From assembly GCF_003334355.1 (NCBI RefSeq), contig NZ_QOWP01000003.1: DNA of 64,000 nt. The stretch is one strand, 5' to 3'. The notes beneath the pieces are model-generated. The model did not search any database. It was not told the DNA's origin and worked only from the letters and a program-made list of their open reading frames with translations. The first letter of the stretch is position 1; each line of letters begins with the position of its first letter. Of the stretch, positions 8,423 to 9,548 are shown piece after piece. The translations under genes were made by a program, and so were the position numbers. The DNA is from Escherichia coli. GTDB lineage: Bacteria > Pseudomonadota > Gammaproteobacteria > Enterobacterales > Enterobacteriaceae.

Positions 8423-8784
8423 ATTTTTCCCTAAATAGTCAGTATGTTGAAACTTTTTATTGTGAGATTTGTTGCAAAAACCATCTGACCATAACGCCAG
8501 CTGCCGGGGAAAGGAAGGATTATCTGCGGTTTTTGTGATGAAAAGCAGGATGATTATATTTAACCCAGTAAATACGTTCCTGTCTTTTTTTGTATAAAAA
8601 ATGTTTATTACTCGATGTAAGGATACATTAATTTTACGTTTATTATGATGAATCCTCTGCAAATGAGCGAAATTTGAAAGAACATTTATCTGCTGTACGA
8701 TTTAATGAACTTAATGATACAGCATTACAAAAACAATCGAAGTTTATAAAGATGATTCCTGATTGACCAGAACCCTATCCTACA

Positions 8785-9210
8785 ATGGTGACTAATTTTA
8801 TTACTCCCGATGGAGATGATGATATGAATATATCATATGTGAATAGCAACAAAACGACATCTTTACCTGTTGAGCTAGATGCACTAAATAATAAAGATAC
8901 CTCTTATGCCAAAGATTTTTCTTATGCTAAAGATTTCTTTTTATACATAGAAACACAGTTAAAAATTGCAAAAGATTTTTGTAGACCTGGAGAAGAAGTA
9001 TCAAGTTCTATTGCAAGTAAAGTTTTTCACGCATTTATTGATTTAGTTAACAAAATCAGGGGTAAGAAAGACTTTATGTATATTTGCACGCTTTGCTGTT
9101 TTGCCGAGGAGGTTAAAGGTGATTATTCTCATTACAGGACCTTTTTATTTGATATTGGTAATCAATATAAGGTTAAACTTACACAAAGCGGAAAAAATAG
9201 CTCTCTTTAA
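8785..9210 (+). CDS. Hypothetical AT-rich ORF in the aphA-tyrB spacer (corresponds to the yjbS region of K-12; true start uncertain)
   Basis: ORF track 141 aa, strongly AT-biased sequence, no recognisable domain. Confidence 0.3.
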   Translation: MVTNFITPDGDDDMNISYVNSNKTTSLPVELDALNNKDTSYAKDFSYAKDFFLYIETQLKIAKDFCRPGEEVSSSIASKVFHAFIDLVNKIRGKKDFMYICTLCCFAEEVKGDYSHYRTFLFDIGNQYKVKLTQSGKNSSL

Positions 9211-9548
9211 CATTAGAATTTAACGATACTATAATTGAATCTCAGAAAGTCACAGGTAATAAGGCAAAGCATATTCTTGAGGATATAGAAATATTCTATC
9301 GTAACAAACCCGATACTTATTATTAAATTTAATAATGGTTAGATGTGCAGAAATTATTACTCCACACGAAAAAATAGGGAAAGGAATTCCAGATAATTGG
9401 GATAAACTTAACAATAAAAGAACTGACAACGTTTTATTATCTCTCACGTAGAACAACGGCATCAAAAAAATCATCTACAAAGAAATAGTGAAAGCGACGA
9501 CAGTTTAATTTCACTGCAGGCTGGGTAACTCCAGCCTGCTTTCCTGCA

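Follow-up and report, generated by a model that had tools for sequence, protein, structure and literature searches.

An AT-rich islet of Escherichia coli between aphA and tyrB that probably carries an orphan gene, yjbS, truncated in this strain

The intergenic region between aphA and tyrB of Escherichia coli raises the question of whether a short, strongly AT-biased tract of DNA contains a protein-coding gene and, if so, whether the copy at hand is intact. We addressed this question in a stretch of 64,000 nucleotides from contig NZ_QOWP01000003.1 (RefSeq assembly GCF_003334355.1), referred to here as the window, in which the spacer occupies positions 8423-9548 (1126 bp), between the aphA start codon (last base 8422) and the tyrB stop codon (9549-9551). 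An earlier note on this DNA had described an AT-biased spacer of about 1.1 kb with two uncharacterized open reading frames (ORFs), one of 141 aa on the plus strand (8785-9210) and one of 74 aa on the minus strand (9250-9474), and had stated that K-12 annotates a small gene, yjbS, at this position. The boundaries, the composition (GC content 0.321 against 0.504 for the whole window), the presence of both ORFs and the K-12 annotation were all borne out. The account that we consider probable is that an islet of ~0.96 kb, found only in E. coli and set between the aphA leader and the tyrB terminator hairpin, bears a single orphan protein-coding gene, yjbS, which evolves under constraint and has a full product of 161-167 aa. 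The loss of one base at the edge of an A-run (9192-9200) would have left this strain with a 128-aa product, most likely that of a recently inactivated allele; the yjbS genes of K-12 (67 aa) and O157:H7 (119 aa) would be further truncated alleles, and the islet would be coated and largely silenced by H-NS, by extension from K-12 data.

The boundaries of the islet are directly visible in comparison with sister species. The first 111 to 139 bases of the spacer are 89-96% identical to those of other Escherichia species and 69-85% identical to those of Citrobacter and Salmonella, and this conserved block presumably represents the 5' leader and promoter of aphA. At the opposite end lies a GC-rich hairpin with a folding energy of -19 to -20 kcal/mol (z ~ -4, both strands), which is probably the tyrB terminator; the short spacers of other Escherichia have an analogous hairpin at the equivalent position, and the descending arm and tail of the hairpin (GCCTGCTTTCCT) have a 12-nt exact match in one of them only, locus L008. 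Between these ends the islet stands where sister species have ~190 bp of unrelated sequence, and the short spacers of L008, L010, L011 and L014 gave no credible alignment to the window spacer between the two conserved ends. The GC content falls to 0.304 in the core (8545-9515), compared with 0.49 for aphA and 0.527 for tyrB.

Several lines of evidence indicate that the plus-strand ORF, which lies between aphA and tyrB and is transcribed opposite to both, is a real gene of which the window holds a truncated copy. Its length exceeds that expected by chance, since among 5000 first-order Markov random sequences of the length and composition of the spacer an ORF of at least 141 aa occurred in only 0.24% (0.44% for at least 128 aa and 0.04% for at least 167 aa). 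The start at 8785 that had been assumed earlier is probably not the one used. The likely start codon is instead the ATG at 8824, 13 codons downstream, which is preceded by an invariant Shine-Dalgarno-like GGAG and is also chosen by the Prokaryotic Genome Annotation Pipeline (PGAP) in the 99.8%-identical strain FCI51 and the 100%-identical strain PSS-12. The 39 nucleotides around the GGAG (8785-8823) have six variable sites across 12 alleles, and the corresponding 13 codons would have undergone five nonsynonymous changes and one synonymous change, so that this segment looks untranslated.

Downstream of the favored start the frame is widely preserved. Among the evenly spaced rows of two genome-wide searches we chose 14 loci that PGAP labels "hypothetical protein", leaving out the K-12, O157 and window allele types, and 12 of them have an uninterrupted ORF of 161 or 167 codons from the equivalent of position 8824. 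Full-length relatives in the databases likewise span 161-167 aa and end in ...FYRNKPDTYY. Conservation of its frame thus marks the plus-strand ORF as a real gene, but the 141-aa form is a 3'-truncated allele of this longer gene. When eight intact alleles were aligned, the sole indel within the ORF was one unit of an in-frame 18-bp tandem repeat, and the flanking spacer contained 1-bp and 16-bp indels. Relative to the window, the K-12, O157 and L094 alleles have one repeat unit fewer and L102 has one more; K-12 and O157 seem to have lost different units.

The substitutions that separate the intact alleles indicate selective constraint on the encoded protein. Pairwise dN/dS ratios (nonsynonymous over synonymous rates) are mostly 0.15-0.56, with one pair at 0.79. 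The variant codons comprise 15 synonymous and 21 nonsynonymous changes, where neutrality would predict 19% synonymous changes (binomial p = 0.0018; pN/pS ~0.34), and polymorphic sites number 6, 12 and 19 at codon positions 1, 2 and 3. The GC content at the three positions is 0.37, 0.29 and 0.25, in the order GC1 > GC2 > GC3.

The lesion in the window was directly observed. A tblastn search of the window with an intact 167-aa allele returned residues 1-124 at 8824-9195 (99.2% identity) and, in a frame shifted by one base, residues 124-167 at 9192-9323 (97.7% identity). In the alignment of the lesion the window reads GGAAAAAATAGCTC, and intact alleles read GGAAAAAAAGAGCTC or GGAAAAAATGAGTTC; the lost base lies at the 3' edge of the A-run, so that the frame is kept through codon 125, the protein then reads ...SGKNSSL to a stop at 9208-9210, and residues ~126-167 are not made. 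This one-base loss thus cuts the protein to 128 aa. An identical coding sequence (CDS) is annotated by PGAP in FCI51 and PSS-12 as WP_001339137.1 (128 aa). Longer intact orthologues exist, among them UniProt A0A1M0STK9 and our entries P0001 and P0004, all "hypothetical protein", which are 99% identical to the window over residues 1-124; against full-length clusters the window protein is 82-94% identical. Both the lesion and the out-of-frame remainder are still recognizable, and because the remainder is near-perfect the frameshift appears recent. The window copy is most likely a recently inactivated allele.

The protein appears to be an orphan without a homologue outside Escherichia and Shigella. 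A word-indexed search of 5.8 billion proteins found nothing named beyond these two genera, and a HMMER profile scan of 1.84 billion representatives gave 27 matches, of which every one examined proved to be an allele, fragment or chimera of yjbS. Pfam offered only a zinc-finger match at E = 0.98 and PHROGs a match at E = 0.31, and NCBIfam and PADLOC had no match for the protein. An AlphaFold2 model, built on a shallow alignment of E. coli sequences only, had a mean predicted local distance difference test score (pLDDT) of 63 and a predicted template modeling score of 0.54. It places disordered residues at 1-26, helices at 28-51, 61-78 and 84-96, a four-stranded meander at 104-144 and a C-terminal helix at 146-160, with the C-terminal half predicted best (pLDDT ~80). 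No stretch is hydrophobic over enough length to span a membrane. The isoelectric point is 6.8 for the full-length protein and 8.3 for the 128-aa form, which stops short of the last two strands and the C-terminal helix of the model, and this loss suggests that the 128-aa product has lost its function.

Truncation of yjbS is not peculiar to this strain. The K-12 protein YjbS (WP_001321562.1, 67 aa) shares with the window its locus, orientation, start codon, Shine-Dalgarno sequence and first 25 residues; its residues 1-46 align to the window save for one substitution and one repeat unit, and the spacer DNA is 96% identical. Unlike the window, in which the frame is open to codon 125, it ends in an out-of-frame tail and has one 18-bp unit fewer, the K-12 allele having lost a G at ~8981 and an A in the A7 run. 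By this comparison K-12 YjbS is itself a frameshift remnant of the 161-167-aa gene. In O157:H7 a 10-bp deletion takes out the A-run and leaves a product of 119 aa, so that the A-run segment (~9189-9200) has been hit in K-12 by a 1-bp and in O157 by a 10-bp deletion as well. Allele L101 has a frame change in the A-run region, as judged from its translation, and a product of 132 aa, and allele L102 combines three repeat units with an earlier frameshift and a product of 115 aa. Estimated from evenly spaced sampled rows rather than from counts, the K-12 type makes up ~37% of islet-bearing genomes, the window type ~5-7% and the O157 type ~7%, and ~47% belong to the class in which 12 of the 14 sampled loci were intact.

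Insertion sequences have entered the gene repeatedly. Two natural strains, represented by loci L097 and L098, carry IS1 in opposite orientations at a target site that is empty in the window, with 9-bp target-site duplications at 9084-9092 and 9083-9091, respectively. The use of one target by these unrelated loci, together with an IS1-bounded deletion in L003, marks the region as an IS1 hot spot. IS1 was also gained in yjbS by two separate laboratory populations of K-12 evolved with macrophages (PMC4999529).

A first alternative to inactivation is that the 128-aa product is still functional and that the truncated alleles are viable shorter isoforms, a reading that we regard as unlikely. Several facts would suit a shorter isoform: neither the start codon nor the Shine-Dalgarno sequence is damaged, residues 1-124 are intact and match the full-length alleles at 99% identity, C-terminally truncated products of 119-132 aa have appeared repeatedly, in several lineages, and the helical part (28-96) is a separate predicted segment. 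However, the two of four strands and the terminal helix that are missing belong to the best-predicted part of the model, the K-12 and L102 proteins are cut much earlier (67 and 115 aa), and the 97.7% identity of the 3' remainder points to a lesion so recent that selection has had little time to act. We thus prefer to regard the window copy as a recently inactivated allele.

The status of the K-12 gene as a remnant has consequences for annotation. PGAP labels intact yjbS ORFs "frameshifted" (L088-L090 and others) because its reference protein is the truncated K-12 YjbS, and several genomes receive an extra CDS of 83 aa that shares the frame and stop codon of the gene; in L088, for example, the annotated features 502-724 and 754-1005 lie within a continuous ORF of 502-1005. 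A transposon-directed insertion-site sequencing study found few insertions in K-12 yjbS and suggested that it is essential (PMC5821084). We rejected essentiality, given that the K-12 gene is already frameshifted, that IS1 insertions in it are tolerated (PMC4999529) and that the islet is missing from ~1,050 genomes; occlusion by H-NS would better explain the low rate of Tn5 insertion.

The islet is one of three alternative states of the tyrB-aphA junction, the others being a short spacer and a 13.8-kb island, and it is the state specific to E. coli. Among 80 loci from other species, fetched through AphA and measured for the tyrB-aphA gap, none (0/80) had yjbS-like sequence. The gap is 325-351 bp in Escherichia sp. 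MOD1-EC7003, E. whittamii, Escherichia sp. E1V33 and strain SCPM-O-B-8794 and mostly 160-320 bp in Citrobacter, Salmonella, Klebsiella, Enterobacter and other genera; a few related-species gaps deviate, down to 67 bp or through GC-rich inserts of 0.7-1 kb. Of the loci in which tyrB is close to aphA, the majority have a spacer of 160-350 bp. In Escherichia sp. MOD1-EC7003 (L008) AphA is 100% identical to the K-12 protein, and yet the spacer is 334 bp long and lacks the yjbS islet, so that the short-spacer state exists very near E. coli proper. Within E. coli, the window spacer was found in 4379 of 5426 complete genomes, and ~1,050 had no match to it whatsoever. Of the latter, those inspected comprised one with an IS1-bounded deletion (8261-9434; L003), which takes the 5' end of aphA and most of the islet, and two with the 13.8-kb island between aphA and tyrB; by extension, this island would stand in place of the islet in about as many genomes as lack the spacer.

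This larger island, with genes for a sensor kinase, a sigma-54 regulator, a second set of 2-oxoglutarate dehydrogenase and succinyl-CoA synthetase and a DASS transporter, has been published as the KguS/KguR-c5032-5039 island of uropathogenic E. coli (UPEC) and placed between tyrB and aphA (PMC3694859). Like the yjbS islet, the kguSR island, which serves alpha-ketoglutarate utilization, is inserted at exactly this junction, as an alternative to it; unlike the islet, it is 13.8 kb long, has a normal content of genes of known function and has no sequence in common with it, and we accordingly rejected the idea that the islet is a kgu island remnant. We also found the kgu island at the junction in E. 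albertii (89% identity), three Citrobacter species (~76%) and Klebsiella indica (~75%). The junction loci examined for this island, in E. coli and beyond, were L005-L007, L009, L020, L022, L027 and L082. The island is thus older and more widely spread than a UPEC-specific acquisition.

The AT-rich composition of the islet (GC 0.30 vs 0.50) and its presence in one lineage only, at a conserved syntenic junction, suggest that it was acquired horizontally. Silencing by H-NS is usual for acquired AT-rich DNA. In K-12 a 318-bp tyrB/yjbS segment is among 78 "promoter islands", overlaps a GIST genomic island, is associated with a predicted foreign gene, and is H-NS-bound in the chromatin immunoprecipitation-on-chip (ChIP-chip) data sets of Kahramanoglou and Oshima, with its transcription suppressed (PMC3661553); a 1-kb yjbS segment ranks among the 20 most GC-divergent of K-12 (PMC2575891). 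The islet resembles those promoter islands in being AT-rich, lineage-restricted and inserted between housekeeping genes, and tyrB/yjbS is named among them, but the published island is the 318-bp tyrB-side piece rather than the entire islet, and its H-NS data come from K-12. By analogy with these K-12 ChIP data, H-NS would coat and largely silence the islet in this strain. The earlier reading of the spacer as horizontally acquired or H-NS-bound DNA holds up, through the absence of the islet from the 80 related-species loci and the K-12 listing.

The islet has no flanking direct repeats, only an 11-nt imperfect inverted pair; no mobility or tRNA genes were found beside it, and tblastn and blastn searches against phages gave no match. 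An origin from a mobile element is unsupported, the phage searches being empty and the plasmid matches mostly mislabeled chromosome-like records: the eight "plasmid" matches are chromosome-sized or chromosome-like, bar one 17-kb Klebsiella oxytoca record with the K-12 allele. Repetition of the islet elsewhere in the window was rejected, as nothing similar was seen there. Three further AT-rich islets (GC < 0.40 in 1.1-kb windows) lie at ~15.9-18.3, 25.1-27.7 and 54.8-57.1 kb. Judged by position, their K-12 counterparts are yjbL/M (a DUF2713 gene, frameshifted), yjbI (a SopA-family gene, also frameshifted) and espL4 (arpA), and the K-12 list of H-NS-bound promoter islands includes each of the three (PMC3661553).

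These H-NS data are also the starting point of a second alternative, in which the islet codes for nothing: it would be promoter-island DNA that binds H-NS, its ORFs would simply follow from base composition, and any role would be architectural or regulatory, for example in insulating or modulating aphA or the tyrB end. That tyrB/yjbS is listed as a promoter island bound by H-NS and suppressed in its transcription (PMC3661553) would fit such a role, as would the lack of any family, fold or homologue beyond E. coli and the many lineages with a broken gene. Against it, an ORF of 167 codons at 30% GC has a chance probability of ~0.0004 and is nonetheless open in 12 of 14 alleles; indels in the intact ORFs are in-frame only, and the synonymous excess (p = 0.0018) and GC1 > GC2 > GC3 gradient point to coding DNA. 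Moreover, a simple sigma-70 promoter scan, which is not PlatProm, found 6 sites in the spacer and 5.3 +/- 2.2 in dinucleotide shuffles, so that the density of promoter-like sites is accounted for by composition. We therefore judge a purely non-coding islet to be quite improbable and return to a coding gene that may be silenced by H-NS.

More speculative is a further idea, to which we give little credence, that yjbS encodes a functional E. coli-specific protein, possibly secreted or effector-like, and that selection for its loss in some niches, and not neutral decay, lies behind the recurrent inactivation. The effector-like part of the idea comes from residues 1-26, which are predicted to be disordered and are rich in Ser, Thr and Asn, and from the remnants of SopA-family, EspL4 and DUF2713 genes that the other islets of the window hold in K-12; the selection part comes from the recurrence of inactivation, comprising at least five types of point lesion, an IS1 target used at least twice and the IS1 insertions in macrophage-evolved K-12.

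Two other alternatives are each very improbable. In the first, slippage at the A7 tract would make yjbS phase-variable, or slippage of the ribosome or during transcription would rescue its frame. The lesions in or at the A-run of K-12, the window, O157 and probably L101 invite this idea, but at 6-7 bases the run is shorter than is usual for contingency tracts, each lineage is fixed in either the on or the off state (the near-identical FCI51 and PSS-12 share the window state), and K-12 and O157 bear additional or larger lesions. Rescue by slippage was rejected for the window allele, in which a -1 ribosomal slip or an added A gives AAA followed directly by TAG, making restoration of the frame impossible. 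In the second, yjbS would have been born de novo from a non-coding E. coli spacer rather than acquired as a gene, as the lack of a homologue among 1.84 billion representative proteins and of a donor or mobile-element signature might suggest. An ORF of 167 codons is, however, very unlikely to open by chance at 30% GC, and since the islet shares no homology with the sister-species spacer there is no ancestral non-coding template, which also counts against a de novo birth.

Finally, the minus-strand ORF, previously listed as an uncharacterized ORF, almost certainly does not encode a genuine small membrane protein: it has an ATG start, a grand average of hydropathicity (GRAVY) of +0.69 and a hydrophobic stretch of membrane-spanning length, but T-rich codons give hydrophobic residues anyway, 1-bp indels interrupt its frame after 16-47 codons in 9 of 12 alleles and leave it open only in the window lineage and one other allele (3 of 12 in all), an ORF of at least 74 aa occurs in 20% of the 5000 Markov sequences and is hence unremarkable in length, its sole family-search match has E = 0.12, and it lies in the most polymorphic segment, the downstream spacer, which is variable at 38 of 219 sites (17%), compared with 35 of 486 sites for the yjbS ORF and 26 of 400 for the spacer upstream of it.

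Several points weigh against the account of an acquired, constrained and here truncated gene. The search for a route of acquisition yielded no donor, mobility gene or flanking repeat, and the structural model, in which confidence is low to moderate, resembles no known fold. The estimate of constraint draws on only eight intact alleles and 36 variant codons, and the case for translation comes solely from evolutionary signatures. The helical N-terminal part could allow the 128-aa product to keep some activity. Furthermore, at least five types of point lesion, whose independence is not proven in every case, and the IS1 insertions indicate that yjbS is dispensable and often lost, and a gene of weak or no function would give the same pattern. 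We nevertheless hold that account to be the probable one.

The features of the spacer are collected in Table 1. The surrounding genes run in reverse orientation relative to E. coli K-12, in the order yjbR (6822-7178, minus strand), yjbQ (7182-7598, minus), aphA (7709-8422, minus), spacer, tyrB (9549-10742, minus) and alr. In this strain aphA is itself a pseudogene, codon 48 (8279-8281, minus strand) having changed from TGG to TGA (...AEQAPIH*VSVAQ); PSS-12, which is 100% identical, is annotated "aphA, internal stop", and because the closely related FCI51 has an intact aphA the nonsense mutation must be very recent. A scan of 7000-11500 with Rfam found no RNA family or tRNA match inside the spacer; outside it, in the tyrB-alr gap, a sub-threshold match to naRNA4/CssrE at 10938-10974 (plus strand; 32.5 bits against a gathering threshold of 59.5, E = 0.004) is probably a repetitive extragenic palindrome (REP)-like element.

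Table 1. Positions in the window of the features of the aphA-tyrB spacer
Feature	Position	Strand	Remarks
yjbS of this strain, 128 codons + TAA	8824..9210	+	C-terminally truncated form of putative 161-167-aa orphan protein
Shine-Dalgarno-like GGAG	8812..8815	+	8 nt upstream of ATG 8824; invariant in 12/12 aligned alleles
In-frame 18-bp tandem repeat, KD[I/T/F]SYA, 2.3 copies	8893..8934	+	Tandem Repeats Finder
Frameshift site, one base lost	9192..9200	+	window A6-TAG; intact AAAAAAAGAG or AAAAAATGAG; 12-allele alignment
Out-of-frame 3' remainder, residues 124-167	9192..9326	+	ancestral TAA stop at 9324-9326
IS1 target site, empty here	9083..9092		used in L097 and L098, opposite orientations
AT-rich islet, ~0.96 kb, GC ~0.30	~8560..9515		without counterpart in sister species
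Conserved aphA-proximal block	8423..8559	-	outside islet; homology ends ~8543-8559
GC-rich hairpin beside tyrB stop codon	9516..9539		right-hand conserved end of spacer
Hydrophobic ORF, 74 aa, ATG start	9250..9474	-	GRAVY +0.69; judged spurious

The locus is in itself ordinary and essentially described already, as an annotated orphan within an AT-rich islet for which H-NS binding has been reported in K-12. What the present analysis adds is the recent one-base truncation in this strain, the finding that the gene is intact and constrained in a large fraction of E. coli, the status of the K-12 gene as a remnant with the resulting mislabeling of intact alleles, and the recognition of the opposite-strand ORF as noise. 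Its practical value lies in annotation, as the K-12 reference is a remnant and intact alleles are mislabeled for that reason. The view of E. coli biology would be unaltered unless a function of the intact protein is found. For the Enterobacteriaceae, the tyrB-aphA junction offers a compact example of a hotspot of recombination and insertion, and yjbS that of an orphan whose intact alleles show signs of constraint although the gene has been lost time and again.

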